Source: a virus (taxonomy: Duplodnaviria; Caudoviricetes). Taken from it: a stretch of DNA of 51,168 bases. A program made the position numbers and the translations under genes. This document shows positions 1-51,168 of the stretch, one piece after another; position 1 is the first letter of the stretch, and each line of letters opens with the position of its first letter. Under the pieces are notes generated by a model. That model was not told the origin of the DNA and did not search any database. It saw only the letters and a program-made list of their open reading frames with translations. The stretch spans positions 1 through 51,168 of the IMG/VR virus record IMGVR_UViG_3300006999_000001; one strand, written 5' to 3'.

Positions 1-99
1 GACGGGTCGTCCCTCGTGTTTAAGCGTGAGAACCAGAACGACCCGCGGGCGATGGAAGGGCAGATTCTCTCCCAGGATATGCTCAACTACGCCTCCCCG
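1..99. repeat. Terminal direct repeat, left copy (99 bp)
   Basis: 1-99 is identical to 51070-51168, and the terminase reading frame runs through the join; most likely an assembly overlap of a circular contig. Confidence 0.95.
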
Positions 100-4036: not shown

Positions 4037-6100
4037 ATGACAGTAAGCGAGACCTTTTCGGACTGGTACGACCGGATGAAGAGTGCGATCAGCGAGACCG
4101 TCGGGCCGGGTCAGCAAACGGGCGAGCAGCTCAAGAGTTGCGTCCGGCAGGTGATGGCCCAGGGTCACGACCGCGAGGCGGCCTACGCCATCGCCAACGA
4201 GACCCTCAAGGCCGACCTCGAGAAGAGCGAGCGGGATGAGCTCCTGGAGACCGCCCGGGAGATGAGTAAGTACGACGCGCAGGTCCCCCTGACGTACGGG
4301 AACCTCGTGGAGTACGCCGGCGTCGACGTCAAGGGTGAGGATGAGCTCGAGCTCCCGAAGTCGTGCCGTCGGTGTAACACCGAGACCCGGGTGAAGGGCT
4401 CGTTTATGTGCCCTGACTGCGACCCCGCGGTCAACCCCGAGAAGGACGAGTACGAGCTGGTCGGCTCCGGGGTACAGGAAGCGAAGGGTGAAAGTGAAGA
4501 GGAGACCGAGAAGGCCGAGGAGGGGGCCGCGACCGCTTCGCGGAAGGTGTACCTCACGCCGTCGACGGCGGATGAGGCCCCGGGCGATGCCCAGGTGAAG
4601 AGTGACGACCGCGGGCTGTACTACGAGGAGTCCGTCGACGGCGTCGATCAGAAGGCAGACCCGATGGCCAACGGTCACGACCTGGACCCGGCGACCGGTG
4701 AGGGGACCTGCAAGTCGACCGGGGAGACGATCACCGCCGAGACGATGCAGGACCTCACCGAGGACTGCCCTCACTGCGGGGAGGCCCTCTCCGTGATCGA
4801 CGCGAAGGCCGACACCGAAGAGGGCGAGACCGGGGCCGACCTCTTCCTGGTCCGGCCGGGTGAGGGTGAGGGCGATCAGTACAACGCGGACGTCCTGGGG
4901 GTCGGCGTCGACTTCCCGGAGTCCGGGGTGTACATCGACTGGTATCTCGAGGCGTTCCCGGACCCGCTCGATGAGGGTCACGTCTCCGAGTACGGCTCCC
5001 TCGAGGACTTCACCAAGGCCAGCGGGAACCAGGTGGAGCTCGTTGAGACCGTCCGGGTCCCGGTCGCGCAGAAGCTGGCCGAGAAGGCCGTCCCGGACAA
5101 CGCCGTCCCCATCGACTCGCGGGGCGAGGCTCCTGACGGGGCCAAGGTGATCGAGGGCGACCGGGGCGGGCTGTACTACGTCCCGGAAGGTGACGAGGGC
5201 GGGGGTGACGATCAGGACTTCTCGGACGTCGACGTCGATGAGGACGGCGAGGAGTTCTTCATCTACGAGGACCTCCTCTCTCGGGACGTAACGCTGCCGG
5301 GAACGGAAGAAGAGGCCGGTGGAGCCGGCGAAGGTGACGGCGACCCCGGGGGTGGAGACGGGGAGGAGGCCGGTCCAGAATTCCAGGAAGGCCAGGAGAT
5401 CGAGAGCCCGGACGGTGAGCCCGCAACGGTGGCCGCCTACGACGAGGAGACCGACGTGGTTCTGTACGAGACCGAGTCGGGAGAGGAGCTGATGGCCCCC
5501 GGCGACAGCTTCCGGGAGACCGAGGAGCCCGAGGTGAGCGAACGGGAGGAGCGCCTCTCCGAGCTCACGGGCATCCGGAACGTGAACGTGGACGACCTCT
5601 CGGATGAGCAGGTCGACGCGTTCGAGACGGCCTGGGAGGACTTCGATGAGGCGGTCGGCGTTCCCGATCAGGCCGTGTTCAACCTGACCACCGAGCCCCC
5701 GGACGACGTCGGGATGGGGGCCGGGGCGAGTTACACCCTCTCCTCGAGGCGGCTGTACCTCAACCCGGACGGCCTGGACCCCGAGTCCAAGAAGGAGGAC
5801 TTCGAGGAGGGGTACATCGCTACCGAGACGGTGGAGGGGTCGATGTTCCACGAGCTGGCTCACGCCAAGCACTTCTCCGACGCCCTCGGCGGGGACGGCC
5901 CCGGGATGAGCGAGCTCCGGGAGGCCGAGCTCACCGATGAGCAGAAGGAGATCGCGGAGGAGGAGGTGAGCTGGTACGCGAGCACCTCACCGACCGAGTT
6001 GGTCGTGGAGGTGAGCTCCGGGCTGTACGAGGGTCAGGAGTACAGCGATGAGGTGCTCGAGATGTACGAGGAACTTGGCGGTCACGAGGTGAACGCATAA
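4037..6100 (+). CDS. Modular acidic head-associated protein with a C-terminal zincin-like metallopeptidase
   Basis: HELAH motif plus WYASTSPTE; two Zn ribbons; GDRGGLYY motif; lies next to MuF. Confidence 0.7.
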   Translation: MTVSETFSDWYDRMKSAISETVGPGQQTGEQLKSCVRQVMAQGHDREAAYAIANETLKADLEKSERDELLETAREMSKYDAQVPLTYGNLVEYAGVDVKGEDELELPKSCRRCNTETRVKGSFMCPDCDPAVNPEKDEYELVGSGVQEAKGESEEETEKAEEGAATASRKVYLTPSTADEAPGDAQVKSDDRGLYYEESVDGVDQKADPMANGHDLDPATGEGTCKSTGETITAETMQDLTEDCPHCGEALSVIDAKADTEEGETGADLFLVRPGEGEGDQYNADVLGVGVDFPESGVYIDWYLEAFPDPLDEGHVSEYGSLEDFTKASGNQVELVETVRVPVAQKLAEKAVPDNAVPIDSRGEAPDGAKVIEGDRGGLYYVPEGDEGGGDDQDFSDVDVDEDGEEFFIYEDLLSRDVTLPGTEEEAGGAGEGDGDPGGGDGEEAGPEFQEGQEIESPDGEPATVAAYDEETDVVLYETESGEELMAPGDSFRETEEPEVSEREERLSELTGIRNVNVDDLSDEQVDAFETAWEDFDEAVGVPDQAVFNLTTEPPDDVGMGAGASYTLSSRRLYLNPDGLDPESKKEDFEEGYIATETVEGSMFHELAHAKHFSDALGGDGPGMSELREAELTDEQKEIAEEEVSWYASTSPTELVVEVSSGLYEGQEYSDEVLEMYEELGGHEVNA
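5082..5186 (+). repeat. 105-nt coding repeat, copy 1 (KAVPDNAV..EGDRGGLYYVP)
   Basis: Highly similar to 6236-6340; the last 42 nt are identical. Confidence 0.9.
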
Positions 6101-6921
6101 TGGTAGATATGGACCGCGTTGATGAGCTTCCGACGGAGTACAGGGTCGCAGCGAAGAACACCGTAACGTCGGTCGACCGGGTCCGGCTGGCGGGCAAGAA
6201 CATCCAGGAGGCCGCGGGTGAGGGTGAGGCCGAGCAGAAGGCCGTCCCCGACAACGCGGTGAACATCGACTCCCGGGATGAGGCCCCGGAGGACGCCGAG
6301 GTGATCGAGGGCGACCGGGGCGGGCTGTACTACGTCCCGGCCGACGGCGAAGAGGGCGAGGACGATGAGGGCGGTGAGGTGACGACCGAGGAGGTCGGGG
6401 AGACCGCGGCCGCGGTCACCGAGGAGTTTATGGAGAAGGATATGGCCCCGAAGCCGGAGACGCCGGCGGACCTCAACAACGGCTTCTGCAACGCGGTCGC
6501 CGAGGCTATCTTCGAAGAGGCCGGCGGGCCCGAGGGGATGGAGATTCGTGAGGCCCACACGATGGGGGGCCGCCACCAGTGGGTCTCTTACGAGGGTCAG
6601 CACTTCGACGCCGAAGCGACCGAGGGCGTCGACAGTTACGAGGACCTCCCGGTGTGGGACCGGTTCGGGTCTCCGGGTGACGCCGAGGTCGTGAAGGAGG
6701 GCGGTGACGATCAGGAGGAAGAGACCGTGGAGGTCGCCGGCGAAGAGGTGGCCGTCGGTCAGGACGTCACCGTGAGCATCGAGGGCTCCGGGAGCGTCAG
6801 CGGGACGGTGGACGATATCGTGGACGTGAACGGGACCCCCTGGCTGATGGTGGAGGGGGAAGATTCGGGCCGGATCAACCAGTACTCCTCCGAGGACATC
6901 GAGTCCGTCGACGCGGAGTGA
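6100..6921 (+). CDS. Modular head-associated protein with a putative papain/transglutaminase-like Cys-His-Asp domain
   Basis: NNGFCNAVA...HQWVSYEGQHFDAE; shares the GDRGGLYY module with the upstream gene. Confidence 0.65.
   Translation: MVDMDRVDELPTEYRVAAKNTVTSVDRVRLAGKNIQEAAGEGEAEQKAVPDNAVNIDSRDEAPEDAEVIEGDRGGLYYVPADGEEGEDDEGGEVTTEEVGETAAAVTEEFMEKDMAPKPETPADLNNGFCNAVAEAIFEEAGGPEGMEIREAHTMGGRHQWVSYEGQHFDAEATEGVDSYEDLPVWDRFGSPGDAEVVKEGGDDQEEETVEVAGEEVAVGQDVTVSIEGSGSVSGTVDDIVDVNGTPWLMVEGEDSGRINQYSSEDIESVDAE
6236..6340 (+). repeat. 105-nt coding repeat, copy 2
   Basis: Matches 5082-5186. Confidence 0.9.
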
Positions 6922-8348: not shown

Positions 8349-8392
8349 GATTCCGTGAGGGGTTTTACCAGACCAGTCAGGGGGGTGTGGCA

Positions 8393-8407
8393 GGGTATGG
8401 GTACAAA
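8393..8407 (+). promoter_or_regulatory. GGGTATGGGTACAAA motif before the protease gene
   Basis: Exact 15-mer, 11 nt before the ATG. Confidence 0.75.
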
Positions 8408-8418
8408 CGTATGAACCG

Positions 8419-9957
8419 ATGAGTGCCGGTGGCTCAACCACCCGTCTCGCAGGTCAGTATGGAGTCGTAGGTCACCGAGCGGGCAGCTCATCCCCGCTCG
8501 GACAGGTGAAGGTGAAGGAGGACGGGACCCGCCGGCGGGAGTTGGTCGACGTCGAAACGTTGGATCAGGAGAGTCGGGAGGCCCTCGAGGCTGACGACTT
8601 CGTGATTTACGGCCGCGCCTCCGTGGAGATGTTTGACGAGGACGAGCCCTCGCAGATGCTCACGATGGAGGCCCTGGCCAAGGCGCTCCCTCAACTGTAC
8701 GAGGACGGGATTATCAGCCGCCGGCACAAGGATATCCCGGTCGGTGAGGTGATCCCCGAGCACGAGCTCGAGGAGCCTACCGACGTACAGGTGGGAGAAA
8801 ACACGCTCACCTTCGAAGCAGGAGATCGCCTCGAGACCCAGGTGGTCGAAGAGGGCGAGGCCCGGCCGGGCGACGGCGGGGGCTCCGCTTCCGAGGATGA
8901 GTTCTGGATTGTTGCCAAGCTGAAAAACGGCAGCGAGATAGCGAAGGAAACCCGACTGCGGGCCCTCGCCGGAGACCTGGACGGCTTCTCGGTCACCATC
9001 TACGCGAAAGAGTGGGAGGAGACCGAGCAGGGTCAGGTGGTCACGGAGCTGGACTGGCACGCCGTGACCATCGGCGAGGAACACAAAATCAAGAACAAGG
9101 AGTCTCGGTTCGGTGTGGCCGAGTTCAAGGCCCGGTTCGAGGACGCCCTGACGGGGGTCCTGCCGGGCAGCGGTGACGCCGGGGGAGCCAGCTCCCTGGC
9201 CGAGCAAGTACACCAGAAGGCTAACACAACAATGAGCGACCACTTCAACGGTCAGCTTTTCACGAAGGCCGGTTCCGACCTCGGCTTCGATGAGTCGCGG
9301 CTCGCAGCTGCCGCGGACCTGATGCAGAAGTCCGAGGGCTCGGACGACGAGGCCCTCCGTGAGAAGGCTGACGAGATCGCGGAACAGCACGAGGTCGACG
9401 TCGACTCCCTGGTGGCCACGGCGAAGGCTATGTTCGGGGCGGAGACGAAGGCCAACGAAGACATTTCAGCCATCCTCGAGCAGGTCGAGGAGCAAATCAA
9501 CCCCGAGGCCCGGGCGGCCCTCGAGATCGCAATGGGTGACGGAGCACCCGACGGCGATGAGGGCGGCTCGGAGGACGCCGAAGAGGCGGCCGAGGGTGAG
9601 ATGAAGGGCGAGGGCGAGGGGCCCCCGTCCGGCGACGGTGAGGAAGAGGAAGAAGAGGAAGAGGACGAGAAGGAGCTCCCCGAGGAGGCCGTCTCCAAGG
9701 AGGAGCTCGATCAGCGGCTCACCGAGCTCCAGGACTCCACGGTCAGCAAGGAGGACCTGGAGGACGTGAAGTCCGACCTCGAAGAGGCGTCGAAGTCCGC
9801 GATCAGCGAGGCCCTCCCGGGCATCGTTGAGGACGTCGGCGAAAAGATGGCCACCGGCGAGACCAGCTCCCCCGCCGGCGGTTCGACCGCGGATTCGGTC
9901 GACTACTCCGAGGACATCGCGGGAGCGTTCTCCCCGAACGGGGAGGGAGGTAACTAA
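8419..9957 (+). CDS. Prohead protease fused to an acidic scaffold domain
   Basis: HK97-type protease pattern IYGRAS..D, H..PVG, GDLDGFSV; acidic coiled C-terminus; directly before the capsid gene. Confidence 0.85.
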   Translation: MSAGGSTTRLAGQYGVVGHRAGSSSPLGQVKVKEDGTRRRELVDVETLDQESREALEADDFVIYGRASVEMFDEDEPSQMLTMEALAKALPQLYEDGIISRRHKDIPVGEVIPEHELEEPTDVQVGENTLTFEAGDRLETQVVEEGEARPGDGGGSASEDEFWIVAKLKNGSEIAKETRLRALAGDLDGFSVTIYAKEWEETEQGQVVTELDWHAVTIGEEHKIKNKESRFGVAEFKARFEDALTGVLPGSGDAGGASSLAEQVHQKANTTMSDHFNGQLFTKAGSDLGFDESRLAAAADLMQKSEGSDDEALREKADEIAEQHEVDVDSLVATAKAMFGAETKANEDISAILEQVEEQINPEARAALEIAMGDGAPDGDEGGSEDAEEAAEGEMKGEGEGPPSGDGEEEEEEEEDEKELPEEAVSKEELDQRLTELQDSTVSKEDLEDVKSDLEEASKSAISEALPGIVEDVGEKMATGETSSPAGGSTADSVDYSEDIAGAFSPNGEGGN

Positions 9958-12474: not shown

Positions 12475-13398
12475 ATGGCTCGGACCATCTACGCACTGCC
12501 CGTCGACGTCCTCCGGAAGTTCGACCCCGGTCTGACCCAGGAGGACCTCGACTCGAATTCACTCTTCGGGAACGAGGACACCGAGCTCGTCCGGTCGTAC
12601 ATCGAAGCCGCCGAGCGGAAGTTCGACTCCCGTACCGGTCACCCGTTCCGGGAGACCCGCGAAGGGGTCAGCGGTGAGCCCCGCACCTACGAGAAGAAGG
12701 ACGCCGACTTCTGGCGCTACCAGGACGGGACGAAGATATGGCTGGATCACTACCCGGCCGTCCCTCTCTCCTCCGTGGAGGGTGACGCCCTCGAGATACG
12801 GACCGGCCGTGACACCTGGAAGGATATCACGGACGACGAGGGGACCCTGTACGAGGCCGACTGGATGGAGGGTACGATCACCATCTACGCGGCCCGGTAC
12901 AGGGGCTCCTGGAGGAACGCCTCCTTTCAGAACAACATCCGGATCAGCTACCGGCACGGGGCCTTCGGGGGTCACCCGGAGCAGGGCGGGCAGACCGAGC
13001 TCACGATTGACACCACCGGGGACGGGACCGACACCACCCTGGACGTTGAGGACGCCAGCCGGCTCCCCCCGCGGGGCATCGTGAACCTCGCCGGGAAGGA
13101 GTACGCCTTCGTGAAGAGCCGGGATGCTGACGCCGACACGATCACCGTCGACCGCGGGGTCAGGTACACCGACGCCTCGAGCTCCACGCTGGTCTCCGGG
13201 GATACCGTTCACTACTGCCCGGAGAACATCCGCGAAGCGGTCGCGGCCCGGGCGGCCCGGGAGCTCATCAAAGTCGACCACATCGGAGACAACCTCCCGA
13301 CCCCGGACGACGACCTCACCTTCTCGGACCTGATCGAGGACCTCGAGCGGGAGTGGTCAGAAGCCATCGCCGAGAACGCGGAGGCCACGCTCCTATGA
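12475..13398 (+). CDS. Head-tail adaptor with an inserted beta domain
   Basis: YIEAAERKFDSRTGHPF, LDHYP, ISYRHG and PENIREAVA are typical of gp6-like adaptors. Confidence 0.75.
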   Translation: MARTIYALPVDVLRKFDPGLTQEDLDSNSLFGNEDTELVRSYIEAAERKFDSRTGHPFRETREGVSGEPRTYEKKDADFWRYQDGTKIWLDHYPAVPLSSVEGDALEIRTGRDTWKDITDDEGTLYEADWMEGTITIYAARYRGSWRNASFQNNIRISYRHGAFGGHPEQGGQTELTIDTTGDGTDTTLDVEDASRLPPRGIVNLAGKEYAFVKSRDADADTITVDRGVRYTDASSSTLVSGDTVHYCPENIREAVAARAARELIKVDHIGDNLPTPDDDLTFSDLIEDLEREWSEAIAENAEATLL

Positions 13399-13925
13399 CA
13401 GTTGAGCTGGAGATGCAGGACTCGAAGATCGAGAGCATCTTCCCGGACCAGGACGTCCGGGTGCAGGTCGGTTTCACCACGGAGTACGCGGCCGCGGTGA
13501 ACTACGGGTCCGACCCTCACTGGCCGCCGATGAGCCCGATGGTCAGATGGACCAACAAACTCGGGTGGGAGAACTACGGCCTGAAAGCGAGCCAGTCCGA
13601 GGACGAGCTTTGGGCCGCGGTCGACCGTCGACGGACCGAGGGTGAGCCGCTTCCCGGGGCCTACTATCTCGCAGCTCACATCGCGGAGAACGGAACCAAG
13701 CCGATGCTGTACGCTTCCGACGCGTTCGTCCAGGCTCAACAGGAGGGCGAGTCCTGGGTGGAGGGTCGGAACTACGACGCCGAGACCCCCATCGTGGAGA
13801 TCGCTCAAGACTTCGGGAACTGGACACTTGAGCTCGCCAACGACAACCTGGTCCAGCGGGTCAGCTCCGCAGCGACCGGGAAGCTCCAACAGTCGGCGTT
13901 CCCGGCGGAGGTGCTGCAGAAGTGA
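13395..13925 (+). CDS. Neck/tail completion protein (HK97 gp10-like)
   Basis: VGFTTEYAAAVNYGSDPHWPP and IAENGTKP; ATG at 13395 overlaps the upstream stop. Confidence 0.7.
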   Translation: MTVELEMQDSKIESIFPDQDVRVQVGFTTEYAAAVNYGSDPHWPPMSPMVRWTNKLGWENYGLKASQSEDELWAAVDRRRTEGEPLPGAYYLAAHIAENGTKPMLYASDAFVQAQQEGESWVEGRNYDAETPIVEIAQDFGNWTLELANDNLVQRVSSAATGKLQQSAFPAEVLQK

Positions 13926-13950
13926 CCCGAGACTGCCGGACTCCGGCCGT

Positions 13951-14210
13951 GTCGTCCCCGATATCGGGCGAACGACAGGGGGGCCACAGTCGCGCACAGT
14001 CGCCTCGTGTGGCCGAGGAGGACCGGTCCGTAGCCTACCCCCTGGAGAAGTTTTCTCGGGATTCGGCCTCGTCGGGGTCTGTACCCCGTGAAAACAGCCG
14101 TCTCGGAGTTTTCGGGGGTTCGTTTCACCGGCTCCGTCGGGTGGTGGCAAGTCGGCTGCCCCCACGTCGGACGACGGGTGACCCCTTAAGGGTTGTCCTA
14201 CGTGTACAAC
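13951..14210 (-). other. 260-nt conserved non-coding element, copy 1 (ncRNA or DNA site), including repeat promoter P3
   Basis: Gap-free alignment with 40102-40361 (199/260 identical by hand count); minus-strand promoter core at about 14184-14212 with no SD/ATG leader. Confidence 0.8.
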
Positions 14211-14226
14211 CGCGGGGTGTTCGGCC

Positions 14227-14745
14227 GTGACCCGGCCGACCTACGACGTCCAGGAGCTCACCATCGAGGGGGCTGACGGGACCTCCGGCTTCGAGGGCGA
14301 GTGGTCGAATCACAACACCGGCCCGGACGGTGACCCGGTACAGCAACCGCGGTTCATCGATATGGAAGCGCCGGGGCCGAGCGAGTCTTCACGGGCCCTC
14401 CCGTCAGACAAGCGGACCACCCCGCTCGTGTACGTTCACGATGAGTCCCCCACCAACATCGAGTGGGGTGACGTGACTCACTCCTCGCAGGACTACGAGT
14501 TCGCGGTGAGGATGGAGATCGTGATCGCCGACGAGATGGACGGCCGCTCCGGGAAGAAGCAGCGGAACGCCGTGGTACACGTCCTCGAGAACATCCGGGA
14601 GGCTCACCGGGCTCCCGTCGACGGTGTGTTCGGCTCGGCGTTCGGCGAGCTCAACCTCGTGAACATCGACAACACGCCGACCCGCTTCTCGAACCAGTGG
14701 CGGGCGTACTACGACATCCAGTACGAGGCCTTCGGTGTTATCTGA
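14227..14745 (+). CDS. Probable tail terminator protein
   Basis: Size, composition and position before the tail tube gene. Confidence 0.6.
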   Translation: MTRPTYDVQELTIEGADGTSGFEGEWSNHNTGPDGDPVQQPRFIDMEAPGPSESSRALPSDKRTTPLVYVHDESPTNIEWGDVTHSSQDYEFAVRMEIVIADEMDGRSGKKQRNAVVHVLENIREAHRAPVDGVFGSAFGELNLVNIDNTPTRFSNQWRAYYDIQYEAFGVI

Positions 14746-14756
14746 CCCGGCTGGAC

Positions 14757-14771
14757 GGGTATGGGTACAAA
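14757..14771 (+). promoter_or_regulatory. GGGTATGGGTACAAA motif before the tail tube operon
   Basis: Exact 15-mer, 9 nt before the ATG at 14781. Confidence 0.75.
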
Positions 14772-14780
14772 GATAGAACT

Positions 14781-15038
14781 ATGCTCCGAGCACTCCGGGC
14801 CGGCCGACTCAACACGGCCCCCCAGGACGACGAGGGGGAAACCCCGTTCCCGGAACACCGCGGCTTCCGGGAGGAGCTCACCTACGACGAGGGTGAGGAG
14901 TTCGACATCCGAGAGAAAGTGACCGCCGACTTCGCGGGCCTCTCTCCGCAGCAGGCCGGGAAGGTAGCGAAGAAGGTGGAGGGCCTGCTCGCGGATCAGA
15001 ACCCGCACTTCGAGATCGCCGATCAGGAGGACGACTAA
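14781..15038 (+). CDS. Hypothetical protein
   Basis: ATG at 14781 follows the motif; acidic. Confidence 0.65.
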   Translation: MLRALRAGRLNTAPQDDEGETPFPEHRGFREELTYDEGEEFDIREKVTADFAGLSPQQAGKVAKKVEGLLADQNPHFEIADQEDD

Positions 15039-15041
15039 CCG

Positions 15042-16064
15042 ATGAGCATCAACATCCCACACCCGTACAAGTCCGAAAAGTCAGAAATAAAGCTCGCCAT
15101 CGAGGCCGCGCAGAAGGGCGAAGTCACCGTCGAACGATACCCGGGCTTCCTGCAAGGTGAGCAGGAGCTGCCCGACCCCGAGATCGACCTCACCGAGGAA
15201 CACTACGTCGGCGGAGGCCGCGACCCCTACGAGCAGACCGAGGGGCAGTGGGGCTTCGACGCCGGCTCCCTCACGATGGTCCCGTACGACGGCTGGCCCA
15301 TCGCCTGGGCTATGGGGGTCGACACCGTCGCGGCCGACACGCCGTCGGCCGGGCTGACGCAGCACACGATCACCCGGAAGCAGGACGGGCCCCCGCCGAC
15401 CGCGACGATGGAGGCCGCCTACCTCGGTCGGGGCGGCTCCCAGGACGACTTCGTGAGGACCTTCCTGGGCTGTTACCCGGGCTCGGCGAGCATCGAGGTC
15501 AGCAACGACGGGAAGCTCACCGTCTCGGCTGACGTCCAGGCCCTGGGGATCACCGACGACACGCCGCACTCCACGGTCACCTCGGTATCGCTGCCGGACC
15601 GCGAGCCCTGGAAGTTCGACAAGGTGAGCTCGAACCTGGACCTCAAGTTCGGCGGGGCGAGTAACCAGTTCGCTCGGGTGACCGACTTCACCTTCGAGAT
15701 CGCCAACAACCCGACCGCCGAGTACTATATGGAGAGCTCCGAGGCTCCCGAGCCGTACGAGATTCTGTACGGGAACGGCGGGTACACCTGGGACGTGACC
15801 ATCGCGGTCAGGGACAACTCCATCTACAACGAGCTGGTCAACTCCGGCGGGACCTTCACGGCGACGATGGAGTTTGCCAAGAACGGCGGGGACGAGACGC
15901 TCAAGTTCGAGGGCGTCGACTGCAAGCTCCCGAACGGGGCCCACCCGGTTCCCGAAGAGGGGAAGGTGGAGACGGAAATCTCGCTCAACCCCCGGCAGAC
16001 CACGATCACCGTGGTCGACGGGACCGAGACCGACTCGTACCTGACCGCGGGGACCGCGGTGTGA
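15042..16064 (+). CDS. Major tail tube protein
   Basis: 340 aa, beta-rich; FLGCYPGSASIEV and FTFEIANN; precedes the chaperone and tape measure genes. Confidence 0.8.
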   Translation: MSINIPHPYKSEKSEIKLAIEAAQKGEVTVERYPGFLQGEQELPDPEIDLTEEHYVGGGRDPYEQTEGQWGFDAGSLTMVPYDGWPIAWAMGVDTVAADTPSAGLTQHTITRKQDGPPPTATMEAAYLGRGGSQDDFVRTFLGCYPGSASIEVSNDGKLTVSADVQALGITDDTPHSTVTSVSLPDREPWKFDKVSSNLDLKFGGASNQFARVTDFTFEIANNPTAEYYMESSEAPEPYEILYGNGGYTWDVTIAVRDNSIYNELVNSGGTFTATMEFAKNGGDETLKFEGVDCKLPNGAHPVPEEGKVETEISLNPRQTTITVVDGTETDSYLTAGTAV

Positions 16065-17221: not shown

Positions 17222-17254
17222 CCTCCCCTTTTCGAGGGCCCGAGTCGGCCGGCC

Positions 17255-17269
17255 GGGTATGGGTACAAA
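17255..17269 (+). promoter_or_regulatory. GGGTATGGGTACAAA motif before the tape measure gene
   Basis: Exact 15-mer. Confidence 0.75.
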
Positions 17270-17293
17270 TCTACCAGTAAGAGTGACCACCCT

Positions 17294-21283: not shown

Positions 21284-22263
21284 TGCCACGAAGAATTGAG
21301 GAGACGGTTGCGGAGAACCGGTCCGGACAGAAGCGCCTCGAGGGGTACGCCATCGAGGTTAGTTCTGACGCCACCCGCGACTACGTGTTCACCGGGAACA
21401 CCGTGGAGGTCGGCGTCGGTGTTGAGGTGTACACCCGCCCGCTCCGGACCTCGCTCATAATGGGCCACCCGGACTCGGCCCAGGGGATGGGGCGGGGAGA
21501 GGTCGGCGATCACCGCGGGGACTGGACCCTCGTCACCGACACCGAGGAGTCCGGTGAGTTCACGACCGGCGGGCGGGGGACCGTGGTCGACGCCCTGGCC
21601 GGTGGGCAGATCGGGCTCGCGGCCCTGGCGGTCGGCTCAAGCTCAACCGCGGCCGGGACCGGGAACACCTCCCTCGGCTCACCGAGCGGGACGAACTTCG
21701 CGTTCGGGACCAAGGACGCCTCGAACGTGACCCGGGCCCAGGCCCCATTCCTCTTCTCGGAGTTCGGTGACGTCGTGACCGAGTACGGAGTTGAGGATCA
21801 GGACGGGACGCTTATGTGCCGGCTGACCACTACCGCGGTCGACCCGGCAGCCGACGAGGAGCTCAAGGCCGAGGTTACCTTCGAGTTTAACGGCGACGGC
21901 ATCGGGGACTCCGTTATCACCGACGCGGGTGAGAAGGGGCTGGCCGACGCCATCCAGATACAAAGCGAGACCGTCGGCCTGTGGGAGGTGGCCCTCGGGA
22001 CCGGAACGACTGACCCGAAGAAGTCGGATACTTCCCTCACCAACGAGCAGGACCGGAAGCGGGCCTCACGGGAGGGCGGTTCGGAGACCGTTCGGGCGTC
22101 CACCAAGTGGTACAAGAGTGAGCCGGCCGGGCAGCCCCTGGACGTGAGCGAGCTCGGGGTGTTCGACTTCGACGGAAACCTGGTGTGGTTCGGGACGTTC
22201 GACCCGTTCGAGAAGAACGAGGCGTTCCCGTTCCAGGGCGGGGCTCAAATCCGTATCATATAG
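21283..22263 (+). CDS. Minor tail protein (two similar fibre-attachment-like domains)
   Basis: ALAVGSS/VALGTG and EYGVED/ELGVFD form an internal duplication. Confidence 0.65.
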   Translation: MPRRIEETVAENRSGQKRLEGYAIEVSSDATRDYVFTGNTVEVGVGVEVYTRPLRTSLIMGHPDSAQGMGRGEVGDHRGDWTLVTDTEESGEFTTGGRGTVVDALAGGQIGLAALAVGSSSTAAGTGNTSLGSPSGTNFAFGTKDASNVTRAQAPFLFSEFGDVVTEYGVEDQDGTLMCRLTTTAVDPAADEELKAEVTFEFNGDGIGDSVITDAGEKGLADAIQIQSETVGLWEVALGTGTTDPKKSDTSLTNEQDRKRASREGGSETVRASTKWYKSEPAGQPLDVSELGVFDFDGNLVWFGTFDPFEKNEAFPFQGGAQIRII

Positions 22264-22281
22264 CGGCCGGGCTCCGCGGCC

Positions 22282-22296
22282 GGGTATGGGTACAAA
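22282..22296 (+). promoter_or_regulatory. GGGTATGGGTACAAA motif before the tail fibre gene
   Basis: Exact 15-mer. Confidence 0.75.
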
Positions 22297-22311
22297 TCTA
22301 CGGAGTAAGAG

Positions 22312-24249
22312 ATGCCATCCGCTCCCAAGCTCGAGGCCCCGCAGGGCCAGCCACTCTTCGACGTACAGTTCCGGGCGATCAGCGAGTCCCTGGCCGGGAA
22401 CGGCGTCCTCACAAACAGCGACCTCGAGGTGACCGACGGGGCTAACGCCCTCGAGATCGACGTCGCGGCCGGGACCGCATACTACGTCGCCACCGAGTAC
22501 AGCTTCGCCGGGGCAGCGCCGGCCGCGACCCTCTCCGCGGGGGACGCGAACTACGACCGGTGGGATACGGTCGCGTTCGATACCGCCGACCAGACGATCA
22601 CGGTCCGCGAAGGGGTCGCCGAGCAGTACCCGACCCCACCTGACATCGCGGGTGGTGAGCTGCTCCTGGCCATCGTGTACGTCCCGGCCGGGGCGACTGA
22701 CATCGGAGCCTCGAATATCCTCAACTGGCGGGCGAAGTTCTCCAACGAGGCCGAGGAGGTTCACTACGACGATACGCCCGGGGTGTACGGCATCGACAAC
22801 GTGGAGGCCGCGCTCGATGAGCTCCAGGAGGCCGCGCAAATCACGGCCTACCCGCTCGATATCGCAACCGACACCGAGGCCAATCAGTACCCGCTCGCCA
22901 ACTCCGACCTGGCAAACTCCACGATCACGGTGACCGCGGGGACCGCCCTGACTACCTCGAACGAGCAGATCGGCCTCGGCGGAAGTGCGACCCTCTCCAT
23001 CTCGGCCGGGGCCATCGGCCTCACCGAGCTCAACTCACCGTTCGCGCTCCCGTCGATCAGCGATATGGACGCCGGCGGAAACGACCTCGAGGATCAGGGA
23101 ACCACCATTTGGGACACTTCCGAGGGCGTCGTCCCGAGGCCCCAGGTGGACGATGAGCGAACCACCTCCGGCCCCCACACCGCGAACGTCACCACCTCCG
23201 GTGAGGAGGTCGTTCTGGTCGACACCTCTGGCGGGGTGGTCACCGTCACCCTCGCCTCGGCTGACGCGAACAACGGGAACTTCGTTTCGGTGGTGGACGT
23301 CGCAGGGGCCGCTTCAACGAAGCCGATCACGGTCGACACCGAGGGCTCCGAGACCATCGACGGGAACGGCTCACAAGAGATGGCCAACAACTACGGGGCC
23401 CTGATCGTCGCCTCGGACGGGGCCAACTGGTTCACGGCCGGCGGGAGTGCGGCTGGGGGCGGAGTCAACGTTGAGGACGACGGGGCGTCGGTTCTGGACG
23501 GGGCCTCCGGCCTGGACTTCGGGACGGACCTCGCCGTGACAGACAACGGCGACGGAACGGTGACCGTCGACTCCGACGCTGCCGGTGTGAACGTCCTGGC
23601 GACCGGGACCTTCACGCATACCGGAGGGTCAGCAACGAGCGAGACCATCGCCGGGGTCACGACCGACCAGACCGCGAACCTGTACGTTGAGGTCGGCGTC
23701 GATGCCGACCCCTCCTTCTCCGCGAACTACGCCTGGGACTATACCTGGGGTGAGGCCTGGGACGACACCAATTCGCAGAAGGACGTCACCATCGACGCGG
23801 CCTGGGATACTGACCCCGGCTCCGGGAACGACGTGGTCCTGGACTACCGGATTTATACGCTCGACGTGAGCATCAGCAAGTCCCGGATACAGAACCTGGT
23901 CGACTCACCGAATGGGCACATCCCCACGGCCCTCCTCGAGGACACCGAGTCGGTCGAAAACAGCGTTCCCGTACCGGACGGCGAGTCCCTGAAAGTGTAC
24001 CGGTGGGGGGCGTACCTGATCGCCGACGGGACCACACCAAGCGGAGTTGAGGTACAGCTCCTGGACGGGGGCGACTCCGTACAGGCCAGCGAAAACACCG
24101 CGAACACCGAGAGCACGAGCACGCCGGTGGCTCAACACGGGAACGCGAGCGGGAGCCTCTCAATCTTCAAACTCCGGATAACGAACCAAAGCGGGGCGAA
24201 CTACGCGACCGACGGCATCGGGGGCTTCTTCGCCTACGTGGTGGAATAA
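22312..24249 (+). CDS. Tail fibre/receptor-binding protein
   Basis: NVEAALDEL and VLVDTSGGVVTVTL..ETIDG modules; rich in Thr, Gly and Asp. Confidence 0.75.
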   Translation: MPSAPKLEAPQGQPLFDVQFRAISESLAGNGVLTNSDLEVTDGANALEIDVAAGTAYYVATEYSFAGAAPAATLSAGDANYDRWDTVAFDTADQTITVREGVAEQYPTPPDIAGGELLLAIVYVPAGATDIGASNILNWRAKFSNEAEEVHYDDTPGVYGIDNVEAALDELQEAAQITAYPLDIATDTEANQYPLANSDLANSTITVTAGTALTTSNEQIGLGGSATLSISAGAIGLTELNSPFALPSISDMDAGGNDLEDQGTTIWDTSEGVVPRPQVDDERTTSGPHTANVTTSGEEVVLVDTSGGVVTVTLASADANNGNFVSVVDVAGAASTKPITVDTEGSETIDGNGSQEMANNYGALIVASDGANWFTAGGSAAGGGVNVEDDGASVLDGASGLDFGTDLAVTDNGDGTVTVDSDAAGVNVLATGTFTHTGGSATSETIAGVTTDQTANLYVEVGVDADPSFSANYAWDYTWGEAWDDTNSQKDVTIDAAWDTDPGSGNDVVLDYRIYTLDVSISKSRIQNLVDSPNGHIPTALLEDTESVENSVPVPDGESLKVYRWGAYLIADGTTPSGVEVQLLDGGDSVQASENTANTESTSTPVAQHGNASGSLSIFKLRITNQSGANYATDGIGGFFAYVVE

Positions 24250-26984: not shown

Positions 26985-27268
26985 TCCGGGCCGTCGACGT
27001 CACCGAAGCAGTCGGGGTCAGTACAGACCGGGTGGAAGCCGGGCGGGTACACCGCGGCCGGTTTGGCCTGCCAGGTCGCCTCCTCGGAGGTGAGCGAGGT
27101 CCCGCAGGCCACCTCACACTCCTCCCCGTTCCCGAGATCGCCGGCGTCGGGGTCTCCGTTCACCTTATGGAGCCGCCGGGATGAACCGTGAGCCGTCGAT
27201 ATCGCCACATAGGAGGCCTGCTCCTGGTGATTCACCGCCTCGACCCCGGGGGTTGTGGTCTTACTCAT
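26978..27268 (-). CDS. Small Cys/His-containing protein
   Basis: H...VACG...CTDPDC; coupled start/stop. Confidence 0.6.
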   Translation of the reverse strand: MSKTTTPGVEAVNHQEQASYVAISTAHGSSRRLHKVNGDPDAGDLGNGEECEVACGTSLTSEEATWQAKPAAVYPPGFHPVCTDPDCFGDVDGPDQ

Positions 27269-27707
27269 CGCTCCATCGCCTCCCTGACGCGATCAGGTGG
27301 ACCGTTGAGATGGAGACGCCGAATTCCTCGGCGAGGTCCCCGTGTTTCTCCTCATCGGCCCGGCCGCGAATCTCGAGCGCCTCCAGCTCGGTCAGCTTCG
27401 AGTTGGGGTTTGCCTCTCCGGCCGCCTCTCTTCGGTCCCGGTCCCAAGCATCCTGCAGGTTGTCTGACGGGGAGCCGAGGTACAGGTGGTTTGGGTTTAC
27501 GCAGGTGGGGTTGTCGCAGGTGTGGAGCACCCACTGATCGCCGGGGGCGGAATGCTCGAGGGTGTACGACACCCGGTGGGCCATCCGGACCTCACCGTTC
27601 ACGCTCACCGTCCCGTATCCGTCGGAGTTCGAACCGGCCGTCCAGGGCCAGCACTCCTCCGGGTCACCTTTCTCGACGTCGCTCCAGAACCGGGGCTCAA
27701 ACTTCAT
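27261..27707 (-). CDS. HNH homing endonuclease with a C-terminal HTH
   Basis: RFW..V..CWPW..GYG..AHRVSY..LHTCDNPTCVNPNHL. Confidence 0.9.
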   Translation of the reverse strand: MKFEPRFWSDVEKGDPEECWPWTAGSNSDGYGTVSVNGEVRMAHRVSYTLEHSAPGDQWVLHTCDNPTCVNPNHLYLGSPSDNLQDAWDRDRREAAGEANPNSKLTELEALEIRGRADEEKHGDLAEEFGVSISTVHLIASGRRWSDE

Positions 27708-28185
27708 CGTCACCCTCCTTCCCGAGCTCATCGCGAGCCATCCGGAGCTGCTCGGCGTTCCGGGCTGCGTGACTGTCCTCGTCAGGGGTCTCACCCTCAC
27801 GGAGCTCGGCGGGCTGCGGGTCCCACTCCTCGTCAGTTCCCTCACCCGTGTCGTTGTCTGCCTGACGAGACGCAGACTTTTTAGGTACGTCCGGCGAAGT
27901 ACGACTGCGGTCCGATGGTGGATATATTAACCTGTTACCTCCCATCGAGACCTTTTCCGAGGCCCCTTCGGGGGCCTCGAGGATGAGCCCGTGACCGTCA
28001 GGTCCGTCGCTCACCTCGTACCCGACCTTCCGGGCCCGAGCGATCAGGCCGGACTTCGCGGTCTCCGAGCTCACGCTCACGAGCATCGTTTTGTACACGT
28101 CGCGGGTGAAGTCGTCCAGCTTGAGGAACGGGTCGTCCCTGATGGACGCAGCGAGCTCCTCACGCTCGTCCGGGGTCGGGGTCAC
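27697..28185 (-). CDS. Hypothetical protein
   Basis: Acidic ORF coupled to its neighbours; contains an AT-rich internal patch. Confidence 0.55.
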   Translation of the reverse strand: MTPTPDEREELAASIRDDPFLKLDDFTRDVYKTMLVSVSSETAKSGLIARARKVGYEVSDGPDGHGLILEAPEGASEKVSMGGNRLIYPPSDRSRTSPDVPKKSASRQADNDTGEGTDEEWDPQPAELREGETPDEDSHAARNAEQLRMARDELGKEGDDEV

Positions 28186-39282: not shown

Positions 39283-39731
39283 GCAAAACGATGGAAGAGC
39301 GCTTCTGGGAGAAGGTCGACAAACGAGGTCCCGAAGAGTGCTGGCCCTGGACGGCAGCGAGCCAACCGGAGGGGTACGGCAACTTCTGGGACGGAGAGTC
39401 CCACGTCGGGGCTCACCGAGTCTCCTTCAAACTCGAGCACGGTGACCCTGATGGGGAAGTCGTGAGACACACCTGCGACAACCCTTCCTGCGTGAACCCC
39501 CGACACCTCCTCACCGGCGACCACCAGGACAACGCCCGAGACCGGGAGGAGCGAAACCCGAGAGACAGAAGTGGAGAGAACGCCGGGCGGTCGAAGCTCA
39601 CCGAGGAGGACGTCCAGGAGATAAAGAGCCGTCTCGGAGAGGATACGCAAGAGGAGCTCGCCGAAGAGTTCGAAGTTTCCCGGTCGGCGATCAGTCATAT
39701 CGCGCTCGGCAACAACTGGGGTGGTTTGTGA
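39279..39731 (+). CDS. HNH homing endonuclease with a C-terminal HTH
   Basis: ERFWEKVDK..CWPW..GYG..AHRVS..RHTCDNPSCVNPRHL. Confidence 0.9.
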   Translation: MSKTMEERFWEKVDKRGPEECWPWTAASQPEGYGNFWDGESHVGAHRVSFKLEHGDPDGEVVRHTCDNPSCVNPRHLLTGDHQDNARDREERNPRDRSGENAGRSKLTEEDVQEIKSRLGEDTQEELAEEFEVSRSAISHIALGNNWGGL

Positions 39732-40075
39732 TTCTGTTTAAATCGTACCACATCCCGCAGATTCGCAGCGGGAGTAAGACCGTGACCCGGCGGGAGTGGG
39801 AGCGCCGGCAGGCCGTCCCCGGGAACGTGTACATCGCCTCGACGGAGATGTTCACCTCCCACGAGGAGGCCGACTGTTACATCCGGGCGACCGACGTGTA
39901 CGAGCAGCCGCTCGGGGAGATGAGTGACGCCGACGCCCGGGCCGAGGGCGAGTATGAGGACCTCGAGGACTTCCGGGCCGGGTACGAGAAGGTGTACGGT
40001 GAGGGCTCCTGGGACCCCGAGAAGGTCGTGTGGGTCGTGGAGTTCGAGTACATCGGCCGGGAACGGCCCGAATAG
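39728..40075 (+). CDS. ASCH (PUA-like) domain protein
   Basis: ILFK..I.SGSKTVTRR...DARAEG...VWVVEFE. Confidence 0.85.
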   Translation: MILFKSYHIPQIRSGSKTVTRREWERRQAVPGNVYIASTEMFTSHEEADCYIRATDVYEQPLGEMSDADARAEGEYEDLEDFRAGYEKVYGEGSWDPEKVVWVVEFEYIGRERPE

Positions 40076-40101
40076 CACCGTCGACGCCCTTCTCGCGGCC
40101 T

Positions 40102-40361
40102 GTCCCTCACGAATTCTGCCGAACGACAGCCGGGCCACAGTCGGCCGACGTTGGCTCGTGTGGCCGAGGAGGACCACTCCGTAGCCTACCCCCTGGAGAA
40201 GTTTTCTCGGGAAATGGACTCGTCCGGGTCTGTCCCTTACGAATTCGGCCGACTCGCACTTTTCGGGGGTTCATTTCACCGGAAGCGTGGAGTGGTGGCA
40301 AGTCGCCAGGACCGTGGAACCACGACCGGATGGGGCTTAAGGGTTGTCCTTCGTGTACAGC
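40102..40361 (-). other. 260-nt conserved non-coding element, copy 2, including repeat promoter P10
   Basis: Gap-free match to 13951-14210; minus-strand promoter core at 40336-40363. Confidence 0.8.
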
Positions 40362-40456
40362 CGTCAGGTGATCCCGGTCAGTCGTCCGACGGATACCATC
40401 GCAATCAGTCCTGACGGAGACCAGTCTTTACAGGCTCGTACGCGAGTGGTTGAAGT

Positions 40457-45021: not shown

Positions 45022-45143
45022 GGGCCGATAGCTTAGTGGTGAAGCCGACGGCGGGTGTTGAGCCGACAGGACAGTCGGGGTATCCCGCTCGCGGTATCGC
45101 AAGCACTACCGCGGGAACGCCGGTTCGAATCCGGCTCGGCCCA
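45022..45143 (+). ncRNA. 122-nt tRNA-like RNA with a non-canonical central region
   Basis: Acceptor GGGCCGA/TCGGCCC+A, D arm GCTT-AGTGGTG-AAGC, T arm GCCGG-TTCGAAT-CCGGC; about 73 central nt form two hairpins and no canonical anticodon loop. Confidence 0.75.
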
Positions 45144-50160: not shown

Positions 50161-51168
50161 GTGAGCTCCGCCGACGTCCCGGGTAAGACGCGCCGGCTCG
50201 TTGAGCTCGCCGAGGAGAACCCGCTCCGCCACCCGGCCCTCTCATCGCTCGCGCTTCACGACTACGAGTACCGGGCCCCGCCCTTCCTCCGGGAGATAAT
50301 GGGCTCGGTGTACAAGGCGCTCGAGCATCCCGATGAGTACCCGCGCCGGCTGGCCCGGCTGTACCCTCGTGAGCACGGGAAGTCCGAGACCGGCTCGCAC
50401 GTTATCCCGGCCTGGGCCGCGCTCCGTGATCCGAACATCCGGGTGCTGATCCTGATGGAGTCGGAGACGAAGGCCAAGGAGAAGCTCCGGCAGTGCGCTA
50501 AGACGATCAGGCAACACGGGGGGAAGTTCGGCCGGCAGATCGATGAGGACAACGCGACGAACCTCACCCTCGAGCGGACGGCGAATCACGCCGAGCCGAC
50601 CATCGCGGCCCGCGGGATGGACTCCAAAATCACGGGGGGCCACTACGACGTCCTGATTTTTGACGACATCGTGAGCTGGCCGACGCAGCGGACCGAGACG
50701 CAGCGGGAAAAGCGGTGGTCGCAGTTCCAGGACTACCAACAGAACCTGGGGTCAGCCGGCGAGTCCGTGTACCTCGTCCTCGGGACCCGGAAGCACAACG
50801 AGGACCTGTACAGTCAGTTGATGGACACCGCCCTGTGGGACGTTGAGGTCCGCAAGGCGATCAGCGACTACTCGATTATCGAGAACGGGGAGTTCACGGT
50901 CACGACTGACGCCGGGAACACCTACCGGGGCGACAACATCTCCGCCATCGACACCCGGAACGAAACCATCCTGGATATCGACCCCGACCGTGAGGTGGAG
51001 ACGCTTTGGCCCGAGCGGTGGCCCCTGGACGCCCTGATCGAGAAGCTCCTCTCCGAGCTCCAAAGTGAGGACGGGTCGTCCCTCGTGTTTAAGCGTGAGA
51101 ACCAGAACGACCCGCGGGCGATGGAAGGGCAGATTCTCTCCCAGGATATGCTCAACTACGCCTCCCCG
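50161..51168 (+). CDS. terL: Terminase large subunit, N-terminal ATPase part (runs off the end into position 100; about 538 aa in total)
   Basis: PREHGKS Walker A, ITGGHYDVLIFDD Walker B, LGTR motif C, LWPERW; missing from the ORF track because no stop occurs before the window end. Confidence 0.92.
   Translation, partial: MSSADVPGKTRRLVELAEENPLRHPALSSLALHDYEYRAPPFLREIMGSVYKALEHPDEYPRRLARLYPREHGKSETGSHVIPAWAALRDPNIRVLILMESETKAKEKLRQCAKTIRQHGGKFGRQIDEDNATNLTLERTANHAEPTIAARGMDSKITGGHYDVLIFDDIVSWPTQRTETQREKRWSQFQDYQQNLGSAGESVYLVLGTRKHNEDLYSQLMDTALWDVEVRKAISDYSIIENGEFTVTTDAGNTYRGDNISAIDTRNETILDIDPDREVETLWPERWPLDALIEKLLSELQSEDGSSLVFKRENQNDPRAMEGQILSQDMLNYASP
51070..51168. repeat. Terminal direct repeat, right copy (99 bp)
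   Basis: Identical to 1-99. Confidence 0.95.

Follow-up and report, generated by a model that had tools for sequence, protein, structure and literature searches.

To our knowledge, hardly any work has addressed the non-coding RNAs of archaeal viruses. ColE1 RNA II is an RNA-based replication origin. In extrachromosomal mycobacteriophage prophages of the non-RepA kind, prophage maintenance is described as requiring a region of about 400-500 bp for a non-coding RNA in reverse orientation (PMC7157519). For the haloarchaeal siphovirus HFTV1, 23 antisense transcription start sites have been mapped, 12 of them within or at the end of structural operons, with a second hotspot in replication operons, and termination-reinitiation coupling is stated as a rule; in the parts of that report used here, the transcriptome points to widespread antisense control of late genes without defined RNA genes (PMC12542753). 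Antisense RNA is also mentioned for phiH (PMC6210493). Repeated promoters form a second point of reference: the PeSLs of T4-type phages are described as mobile promoter cassettes, short promoter/terminator motifs that drive the shuffling of neighbouring genes by recombination (PMC2839356), and the halovirus HGTV-1 has a repeated TATA-plus-inverted-repeat motif (PMC3950731).

The window analysed here, a stretch of 51,168 nt from a tailed virus, holds two copies of a cassette that recalls these systems in part. As with the antisense RNAs of HFTV1 and phiH, its promoter lies opposite the gene array, inside structural and early operons or at their ends, and its expected product would be complementary to the sense mRNA. 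Unlike those RNAs as far as the sections consulted describe them, the cassette carries its own conserved, length-fixed non-coding segment downstream of the promoter, is found in two paralogous copies and has moved as a unit, and has a transcript that is a prediction; blastn against a phage collection found no sequence similarity to HFTV1 or phiH. Copy 1 occupies 13930-14226 on the minus strand, a 297-nt segment with homology to copy 2, to the copies in the viral contigs L010 and L011 and to a copy in a plasmid-prophage of Natronosalvus rutilus. Copy 2 (40081-40377, minus strand) directly follows a gene for an ASCH-domain protein (39728-40075, plus strand; PF04266, 2e-11), whose stop codon abuts it.

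A repeat search of the window returned a single two-copy family, 13941-14222 and 40092-40373 (282 nt, 76% identity, spacing 26151). The original prediction had aligned 13951-14210 to 40102-40361 without a gap at 199 of 260 positions, had counted about 36 of the 61 differences as complement swaps and had named invariant blocks, among them ones of 35 and 21 nt; the recount agrees on all of these, with identical blocks of 35, 21 and 14 nt. By type, the differences are CG 23, AT 13, AG 8, CT 7, AC 8 and GT 2, so that G<->C or A<->T swaps make up 36/61 over 260 nt and 42/69 over 282 nt, where our own arithmetic gives a share of about 37% for randomised sequence of the same composition. A 58-nt block at 14004-14061 is the same as 40155-40212 of copy 2 at 56/58 positions. 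Its right 41 nt differ in the L010, L011 and N. rutilus copies, and the 35-nt block, identical in copies 1 and 2, differs in all three of the others; the 58-nt block is taken to be a tract exchanged between copies 1 and 2 by gene conversion. The 99-nt terminal repeat of the window (1-99 = 51070-51168) implies a unit length of 51,069 and thus a second arc of 24,918 between the copies, in agreement with the circle and the arcs of 26,151 and 24,918 bp proposed before. The near-opposite placement that had drawn attention is without visible meaning, as copy 1 is a secondary insertion and the cumulative GC skew turns at neither copy 1 nor copy 2.

The history of the two copies can be read from their flanks. 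Copy 1 interrupts the neck/tail operon, as had been recognised: the genes on either side, 13353-13925 (plus strand; 71% amino acid identity to its N. rutilus orthologue up to the C-terminus) and 14227-14745 (plus strand; 23 homologues, two genes ahead of the tail tube gene at 15042-16064), have orthologues that overlap by 4 nt, without the element, in HHTV-2 and N. rutilus, the empty-site junction in the latter reading AATGACCCGGCC. One metagenome contig joins 13921 directly to 14227, and the 8 letters at the joint fit either side. In the window these 8 nt stand twice, as a left direct repeat GTGACCCG at 13922-13929, in which the upstream gene has its TGA stop and the open frame described below has its GTG, and as a right direct repeat GTGACCCG at 14227-14234, which contains the GTG start of the downstream gene and the TGA of that frame; a repeat of 8 nt was reached in 47/500 shuffles of the 60-nt flanks. 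On this evidence, copy 1 came later, when 297 nt entered a stop/start overlap and 8 nt of the target were duplicated; the duplication rests on one insertion event. No flanking repeat of at least 6 nt was found around copy 2, and the sole copy of N. rutilus directly follows the orthologous ASCH gene (81% amino acid identity), which marks the site after the ASCH gene as evidently the ancestral one.

An insertion of this kind invites comparison with MITEs, and a selfish, non-autonomous element with a captured promoter, useless to the virus and conserved for the needs of its own mobilisation, is an unlikely account. Like MITEs, the cassette is small (297 nt), non-coding and present in more than one copy in the window (one in N. 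rutilus), with a single target-site duplication and documented empty sites, both at copy 1, and its distribution is patchy: it is present in relatives with a flanking protein at least 77% identical and absent from that site at 71%. Terminal inverted repeats are lacking, however, the longest inverted end-to-end match being 6-7 nt for copy 1 and 6 nt for copy 2, there are two copies per genome only, and searches of phage, plasmid, IMG/VR, metagenome and genome collections found none beyond this small clade of viruses. It also differs from MITEs in that its interior blocks, and not just its ends, are invariant at a fixed length, that the ASCH-linked copy has stayed in position between viruses with 81% identical ASCH proteins, and that no partner transposase was identified among the 29 ORFs scanned.

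Five copies are known, from three viral contigs (two in the window, one each in L010 and L011) and from N. rutilus WLHS1, whose plasmid unnamed3, a free 58-kb circular replicon, holds one copy at 22221-22487. A five-copy nhmmer profile, run over the window, L012, L013, positions 1-40000 and 48619-55134 of the N. rutilus record and the HHTV-2 locus, recovered these five copies only. With copy 1 and the N. rutilus copy as queries, blastn gave 0 matches in the phage collection and nothing in the plasmid collection but the N. rutilus record itself. IMG/VR yielded 0 matches to a 35-mer, 2 contigs with a hairpin pattern, and with a second pattern 19 stretches, of which 2 were known contigs and 17, at 42-46% GC, had no blastn match to the element; in a profile-based viral scan 2/35 stretches were confirmed, in the same two contigs as before. 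The 24 stretches of a metagenome scan are all attributable to chance (4 weak matches of 21-43 nt on 3/24 loci, E 0.034), and the genome collection gave 0 by DNA pattern and 0/15 confirmed stretches by protein patterns. Contigs encoding the proteins P0002-P0015 and P0017-P0023 probably hold further copies of the cassette.

The alignment of the five copies spans 282 columns with a single 1-nt gap, at 64-80% identity and with 123/282 columns invariant; copy 1 and L011 differ at 73/282 sites, compared with a dS of 0.50-0.59 in flanking genes. Sequence comparison thus establishes that the element is under nucleotide-level constraint at near-fixed length. Constraint of this form could reflect a DNA-level site, in which protein-binding blocks at fixed spacing build a nucleoprotein complex (a regulator array, an insulator or terminator, a partition or packaging site) and the promoter motif is one of the bound blocks, a possibility to which we assign a small probability. 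It would account for invariant blocks that alternate with freely varying, fixed-length spacers unpaired with each other, for a palindromic hexamer at the same column in all five copies (GATATC in three, GAATTC in two) and for the excess of swaps that keep the weak/strong pattern between copies 1 and 2. Against it, the weak/strong class is kept in just 54/129 variable columns when four copies are compared, no periodicity of conservation was found at 3 or at 10-11 nt (peak power 1.29 at 11.1 nt, under the 95% null of 1.88), no iteron-like word longer than a 5-mer is repeated, and a scan for terminator-like sites of bacterial type, run for promoters as well, gave nothing in copy 2 and, in copy 1, a single weak site on the plus strand.

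The element does hold a long open frame. Across copy 1 a stop-free plus-strand frame runs from 13922 to 14230 (102 codons), its GTG overlapping the upstream stop and its TGA the downstream start. The plus frame is open in four of the five copies (both window copies, L010 and L011); in copy 1, L010 and L011 it is bounded on either side by GTGA/ATGA overlaps, and the indels of L011 preserve it (one of +3, and a +1 with a +2 twelve nucleotides apart). One minus frame has 0, 1, 0 and 0 stops in copy 1, copy 2, L010 and L011, with candidate starts at a leaderless GTG (14165) or a TTG (14150). Stop-free frames of this kind were reached by 0.2-0.6% of shuffles, a figure that overstates the case since the sequences were assumed independent. 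P0010 has an N-terminal extension similar to the translation of the plus frame, and the minus candidate frame has a dN/dS of 0.68-0.89, slightly under the 0.91-1.57 of the other two minus frames.

A protein-coding gene on either strand is nevertheless very improbable. Composition shows no codon periodicity, GC by codon phase in the element being 0.72/0.62/0.64 against a GC3 of 0.82-0.92 in the genes of this virus, and neither does substitution, with 37/47/45 variable columns by phase; dN/dS in the plus frame is 0.87-1.03, compared with 0.28-0.40 for flanking genes. The products would be Arg-rich and basic (K+R 14-17 to D+E 8-10 of 93), in a virus whose real proteins have the GC3 just given. 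Neither frame survives in N. rutilus: an in-frame TGA and a frameshift interrupt the plus one, and the minus one, read from its conserved start, stops after 14 codons; in copy 2 the minus frame ends after 64 amino acids, and the TTG start is missing from two of the five copies. Candidate translations had no match in Pfam or PHROG, and no relative of either frame was found among about 5.8 billion predicted proteins. Readthrough of the ASCH stop codon was also considered and dropped, as the frame continues in copy 2 and N. rutilus but meets a stop after 36 codons in the latter. The comparison establishes that the element is non-coding and not an ordinary gene, as had been predicted from the letters of one genome; neither codon-type conservation nor free indels appeared in the homologues. 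The frame at 13922-14230 is instead read as a translated linker that preserves translational coupling, and not as a protein in its own right.

What the element does possess is a promoter. The promoter of copy 1 (14185-14214, minus strand) combines a TATA-like TTAAGG with an upstream ACACG.AGGACAAC motif, and that of copy 2 (40336-40365, minus strand) has the same repeated viral motif; both read towards lower coordinates, opposite in strand to the flanking genes. The motif proper lies at 14185-14208 and 40336-40359, and a motif scan of the window gave 5 matches where 0 were expected. Of 13 copies of the viral promoter in the window, 11 are followed about 62-66 nt downstream by a GAGGTAACAGGCTATG-type leader and then by a gene in matching orientation, an arrangement from which the two inside the elements depart. 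The prior description of each copy as ending in an inward-facing repeat promoter without leader or start codon was accordingly borne out, on the minus strand. In copy 1 the 19 nt downstream of the TATA are common with the promoter at 8341 (minus strand). The motif is kept in all five element copies at the level of sequence, where the promoter is the best-conserved stretch of the element.

The likeness to PeSLs and to the HGTV-1 motif, as far as the accounts used here describe them, lies in a repeated viral promoter that is scattered over the genome and tied to insertions or replacements between close relatives; copy 1 is itself an indel between relatives. PeSLs differ in that the present unit spans 297 nt with about 250 nt of conserved non-promoter sequence, has a target duplication and entered a site without a promoter in relatives, and no conserved terminator stem-loop was found in it.

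As a genuine viral promoter copy points into the element, a minus-strand RNA of at least about 220 nt is naturally expected. For copy 1 the predicted transcript would cover 14164-13941 on the minus strand, its 5' end falling at about 14164 +/- 3 if it keeps the distance from the TATA seen at the other promoters, and its 3' end possibly lying further into the antisense of gene 13353-13925; that of copy 2 would, by the same reckoning, span 40315-40092 (minus strand). No oligo-T run of 5 or more that could end the RNA was seen on the minus strand of the element in the sequences and their alignment. We infer the firing of the promoter and the ends of the transcript from these features, and the antisense and translated-linker roles likewise.

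Such an RNA could prime or open the DNA at a transcription-primed replication origin, although this is slightly less probable again than the mobile-element and DNA-site accounts. As at ColE1 RNA II and, in the portion of the report used, the mycobacteriophage origins (PMC7157519), a promoter would drive a conserved non-coding RNA against its neighbours in an ORF-free region, and one relative is a free circular replicon of 58 kb with a single copy. A G-run (G4-G6) stands at the predicted 5' end of the RNA in four of the five copies, and neither the 29 window ORFs scanned nor the N. rutilus annotation consulted showed a recognisable replication initiator, helicase or polymerase; the missing Rep gene means little, as most ORFs are unannotated. 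The cassette departs from those origins in having two copies in one genome, no sequence similarity to them and no AT-rich unwinding stretch. Copy 2 of the window has no G-run, the GC skew speaks for an origin at neither copy, and a second origin inside a late operon would be an odd design.

As one of its two options, besides a DNA site, the original prediction envisaged a structured RNA with possibly guide-like variable segments, and neither property finds support here. Over five sequences the covariation terms of RNAalifold are penalties on both strands (+6.56 kcal/mol on the minus and +9.04 kcal/mol on the plus strand). The minus-strand consensus has 9 double-change pairs against 4.7 in shuffles (8/500), with 80.8% of cells paired, which is weakly above the shuffles and can arise among related sequences without structure. 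A search for Watson-Crick helices of at least 4 bp with two covarying pairs found at most a single weak one, of 4 bp and with 2 cells unpaired, and single-sequence folds gave z-scores of -1.75, -1.23, -1.05 and +0.61. Of the two stems held to be conserved, GGCCACA/TGTGGCC is intact in three of the five copies, yet has one mismatch in L011 and 4/7 pairs broken without compensation in N. rutilus, and GAGAA/TTCTC exists in the two window copies only. The variable segments fare no better as guides: the longest exact matches of the element elsewhere in its own genomes are 13-14 nt, at chance level (shuffled mean 12.5, max 15). That no known family had been recognised agrees with Rfam, which at gathering thresholds matched only a tRNA at 45022-45143 in the whole window, and whose E-value scans of both copies stayed at chance level (10-17 bits, compared with gathering scores of 49-80). 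Several other candidates were dropped, namely a CRISPR-like solitary repeat, which we take to be similar over a mere 8 nt, a template/variable repeat pair of a diversity-generating retroelement (DGR), as the differences are not adenine-specific, a TnpB/IscB guide RNA, as no such gene occurs among the ORFs scanned, and hammerhead or other ribozymes, in view of the lack of an Rfam match.

A different kind of RNA gene is doubtful, though worth setting out: a mobile gene for a trans-acting viral RNA, in which a constant scaffold (about 120 invariant positions whose spacing is fixed) is combined with segments open to exchange, or for an RNA that primes replication of the episome, which would spread by copying its own promoter-plus-RNA unit, even into the middle of an operon. 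Partner specificity could come from the GAUAUC or GAAUUC apex, which is self-complementary within each type of copy and not between types, or from the 41-nt tract, which the two copies of one genome share exactly and other copies do not; the mid-operon copy would survive because it can be translated through.

The best reading, which we hold tentatively and at somewhat under an even chance, is that of a duplicative promoter and non-coding RNA cassette that gives an antisense or regulatory RNA. Two promoter-bearing copies, one of them a later insertion into an operon, suggest that the cassette is probably a gene for a small RNA, antisense or regulatory, and can copy itself to new places. The cassette of about 300 nt would have two parts, the repeated 'early-type' archaeal promoter and 220-250 nt read from it on the minus strand, against the direction of all neighbouring genes, and its product would most likely be a small RNA. 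The RNA of copy 2 would be the antisense of the 3' end of the operon before it, after ASCH, and that of copy 1 the antisense of the late neck/tail mRNA, and each would help to set the timing or level of the genes in the neighbouring operon. The ASCH-linked copy came first, and copy 1 arose when the 297 nt were inserted precisely into the GTGA where a pair of coupled genes overlap, stop on start; gene conversion would since have exchanged the 58-nt tract between the copies. Inside the operon, copy 1 would have kept its plus strand as a 102-codon stop-free frame coupled at both ends, through which ribosomes can continue to the tail genes. A plain antisense role leaves the conserved blocks and the fixed length of the 220-250 nt unexplained, and it counts against this reading that copy 2, which lies outside any operon, has the open frame as well. 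The insertion with its target duplication, the ASCH-linked ancestral site, the gene conversion and the stop-free coupled plus frame all go beyond what had been predicted.

Copy 1 offers a clear case from nature of a regulatory cassette that has entered a stop/start overlap and is tolerated, apparently because the stop-free frame preserves termination-reinitiation coupling. The cassette also poses a puzzle as to the force that holds 282 nt at a fixed length and 64-80% identity without a protein frame or visible RNA pairing. As it is present in a cultured strain, on plasmid unnamed3 of N. rutilus WLHS1, the cassette is directly testable, and if the favoured reading is true, it would represent a defined, conserved, promoter-equipped antisense or non-coding RNA unit of a haloarchaeal tailed virus.

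A repeat search of the window returned one two-copy family of 282 nt, at 13941-14222 and 40092-40373, with 76% identity and a spacing of 26,151 nt. The window itself is a complete IMG/VR virus record (51,168 nt, terminal repeat 99 nt) of about 65% GC with nearly all genes on its plus strand, and its tail tube protein shares 36-41% identity with the counterparts in the haloarchaeal siphoviruses HHTV-2, HCTV-5, HVTV-1 and HCTV-2. Two related IMG/VR fragments carry the element at the copy-1 position, L010/L012 (84% to copy 1) and L011/L013 (75%), and one copy is present in the Natronosalvus rutilus WLHS1 plasmid unnamed3 (NZ_CP100358.1, circular, 58,468 bp). This plasmid holds head/tail orthologues and numerous occurrences of the window's promoter motif, and looks like an extrachromosomal provirus of the same virus group; a tail tube gene and orthologous neck genes are present, and no replication gene is named within 40 kb of annotation. 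The remaining homologue searches, which were empty or gave chance matches, confirmed no further element copies. A public assembly encodes P0010, a 225-aa version of the protein downstream of copy 1, with extra N-terminal sequence that resembles the element's plus-frame translation; at least one further copy, with indels, therefore exists.

The original prediction described gap-free twins that differ mainly by complement swaps and share three identical blocks, and this description is borne out: 13951-14210 and 40102-40361 (260 nt) align without a gap and differ at 61 positions, 36 of them swaps (23 C/G and 13 A/T), and all three blocks are present. The swap excess is marked only for this pair (42/69, vs 26/55 to 44/94 in the other pairs). 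On the plus strand A/C differences outnumber G/T differences in every pair (8 vs 2 in the 260-nt span, 141 vs 54 summed over ten pairs), in excess of the ratio of about 1.6 predicted from the composition of the variable columns. The tract at 14004-14061 is identical at 56/58 positions between the window's two copies, and the 41 nt on its right side are different in the other three copies (L010, L011 and N. rutilus), although L010 equals copy 1 over the preceding 95 nt. The tract appears to be a gene conversion between the two copies (concerted evolution), which would account for the long stretches first taken as invariant blocks. A palindromic hexamer occupies one fixed position in 5/5 copies (13958-13969 in copy 1), reading GATATC in copy 1 and in both IMG/VR fragments, and GAATTC in copy 2 and in the N. 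rutilus element, such that a paired A/T swap preserves the palindrome. Within copy 2, a direct repeat of about 22 nt centered on GAATTC occurs at 40101-40125 and 40228-40250, 127 nt apart; in the other copies the matching patches do not resemble each other.

The five copies share 64-80% identity over 282 aligned columns, with 123 columns invariant and a single 1-nt gap. Within metagenome contigs over the element, the single-base indels listed are paired as +1/-1 within 2-4 nt, except for a lone deletion at 14166 in 2/4 runs. As copy 1 and L011 differ at 73/282 sites, against a synonymous divergence of 0.50-0.59 for the flanking genes, the element overall evolves at roughly half the neutral rate, its blocks being frozen and its patches nearly free. 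A DNA-level binding array is one rival reading of an element so constrained in length.

At the copy-1 site, HHTV-2 genes 43 and 44, homologous to the flanks, overlap by 4 nt, as do the N. rutilus orthologues (71% aa identity each, junction AATGACCCGGCC). In the window the same word, GTGACCCG, is found on both sides of copy 1, at 13922-13929, where it is the source of the upstream stop, and at 14227-14234, where it is the source of the downstream start. One contig in metagenome run X4 joins 13921 straight to 14227 with 8 letters fitting either side, and two in run X1 join 13861 or 13865 to 14227/8; these alignments were made at 80% likeness or above and allow for intervening letters. Copy 1 is thus read, from one event, as a probable 297-nt insertion with an 8-nt target duplication, which a selfish MITE-like element, a rival explanation, might also produce; an 8-nt repeat was reached in such flanks in 47/500 shuffles, and its left copy is degenerate in L011. 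Beyond the downstream gene, 14746-15041 (296 nt, before the tail tube gene) has no high-GC3 ORF; its counterpart is only 58 nt in N. rutilus and a 103-aa gene in HHTV-2.

In N. rutilus the only copy follows immediately on an ASCH gene with 81% identity to its counterpart in front of copy 2, and the element homology begins within a few bases of the ASCH stop codon. On the right, this copy is followed by AT-rich spacer DNA, then by a forward promoter with the leader of the next gene; with the ASCH gene on its left, the element therefore separates two transcription units and points back into the first of them. This ASCH-linked site is the ancestral one. An HNH endonuclease gene (PF13392; 39198-39731, +), one of two in the window (the other at 27261-27845, -), adjoins the upstream side of the window's ASCH gene. 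N. rutilus lacks it at this position, and a gene for a DNA cytosine methyltransferase is located three genes upstream of its ASCH gene.

A protein-coding gene is a further rival, as copy 1, L010 and L011 share an open frame of 102-104 codons whose GTG overlaps the upstream TGA and whose TGA overlaps the downstream GTG or ATG. When variable columns were shuffled, 0.2-0.3% of trials kept a given frame free of stops in all four copies, a statistic that presumes independent sequences and is therefore overstated. The element has a flat GC profile across codon phases (0.72/0.62/0.64, vs GC3 of 0.82-0.92 in neighboring genes), and third-phase A and T are at 15-22% vs 4-6%. In 6/6 pairwise comparisons among the first four copies, differences are spread evenly over the three phases (variable columns 37/47/45), and dN/dS is 0.87-1.03 in the open plus frame, 0.75-1.18 in the two other plus frames and 0.68-0.89 in the minus frame beginning at the predicted TSS, vs 0.28-0.40 in the flanking genes. 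The N. rutilus copy breaks the plus frame with an in-frame TGA and a frameshift, and its minus frame, read from the conserved GTG, stops after 14 codons; neither translation matched a Pfam or PHROG family or any predicted protein searched. The element is not a gene, in line with its original description as non-coding. L011 carries length changes of +3 nt at the left end of the frame and, at the right end, of +1 and +2 nt separated by twelve bases. Because dN/dS is near 1 in the open frame, the simplest reading is a translated linker: ribosomes would translate through the copy-1 insert, and termination-reinitiation coupling to the tail genes, which PMC12542753 gives as the rule for unidirectional genes in HFTV1, would survive.

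The structured RNA once proposed was not borne out among the five sequences, which are too few to exclude a fold. Rfam has no match to the element, single-sequence folding was unremarkable, the RNAalifold covariation term was a penalty on both strands, and the consensus structure changed when the fifth sequence was added. On the minus strand 80.8% of cells were paired, with 9 double-change pairs vs 4.7 shuffled (8/500), which is weak by the tool's own warning. The GGCCACA/TGTGGCC stem, held to be conserved, loses 4/7 pairs in N. rutilus with no compensation. Elsewhere in the window, an Rfam tRNA match (45022-45143, +; 42.5 bits) spans 122 nt over the full model 1-71, and the gene is thus probably intron-bearing and of archaeal type; no tRNA was called in the window by ARAGORN.

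The window contains 13 occurrences of the promoter motif, and in 11/13 cases a conserved leader (Shine-Dalgarno-like GAGGT and ATG) follows 62-66 nt from the motif start, with a high-GC3 ORF in matching orientation. The other two, as the prediction held, are at the ends of copies 1 and 2, facing into each on the minus strand with no leader; past its TATA box, the copy-1 promoter matches the one at 8341(-) for another 19 nt downstream, and by analogy with the other promoters transcripts are predicted to start near 14164 and 40315. A second motif, GGGTATGGGTACAAA..., at 1560-1598, 8375-8413, 17237-17275 and 22264-22302 (+), ends 6-19 nt ahead of long plus-strand ORF starts at 1616, 8419, 17294 and 22312, and may represent a class of late promoters serving leaderless structural mRNAs; the unit starting at 8419 contains copy 1. 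A direct repeat of 135 nt (81% identity) lies at 5082-5216 and 6236-6370, its two units falling within the neighboring long ORFs 4037-6100 and 6100-6921.

As the conserved promoter has only the conserved non-coding stretch to express, the favored reading is that the element specifies a small minus-strand RNA. An RNA-primed origin is another rival, with a precedent in PMC7157519, and the antisense reading does not explain the element's fixed length. Such a minus-strand RNA would be antisense to the final part of the ASCH operon and, from copy 1, to the late neck/tail mRNA, in keeping with HFTV1, in which 12/23 antisense TSSs map inside structural operons or to their ends (PMC12542753).
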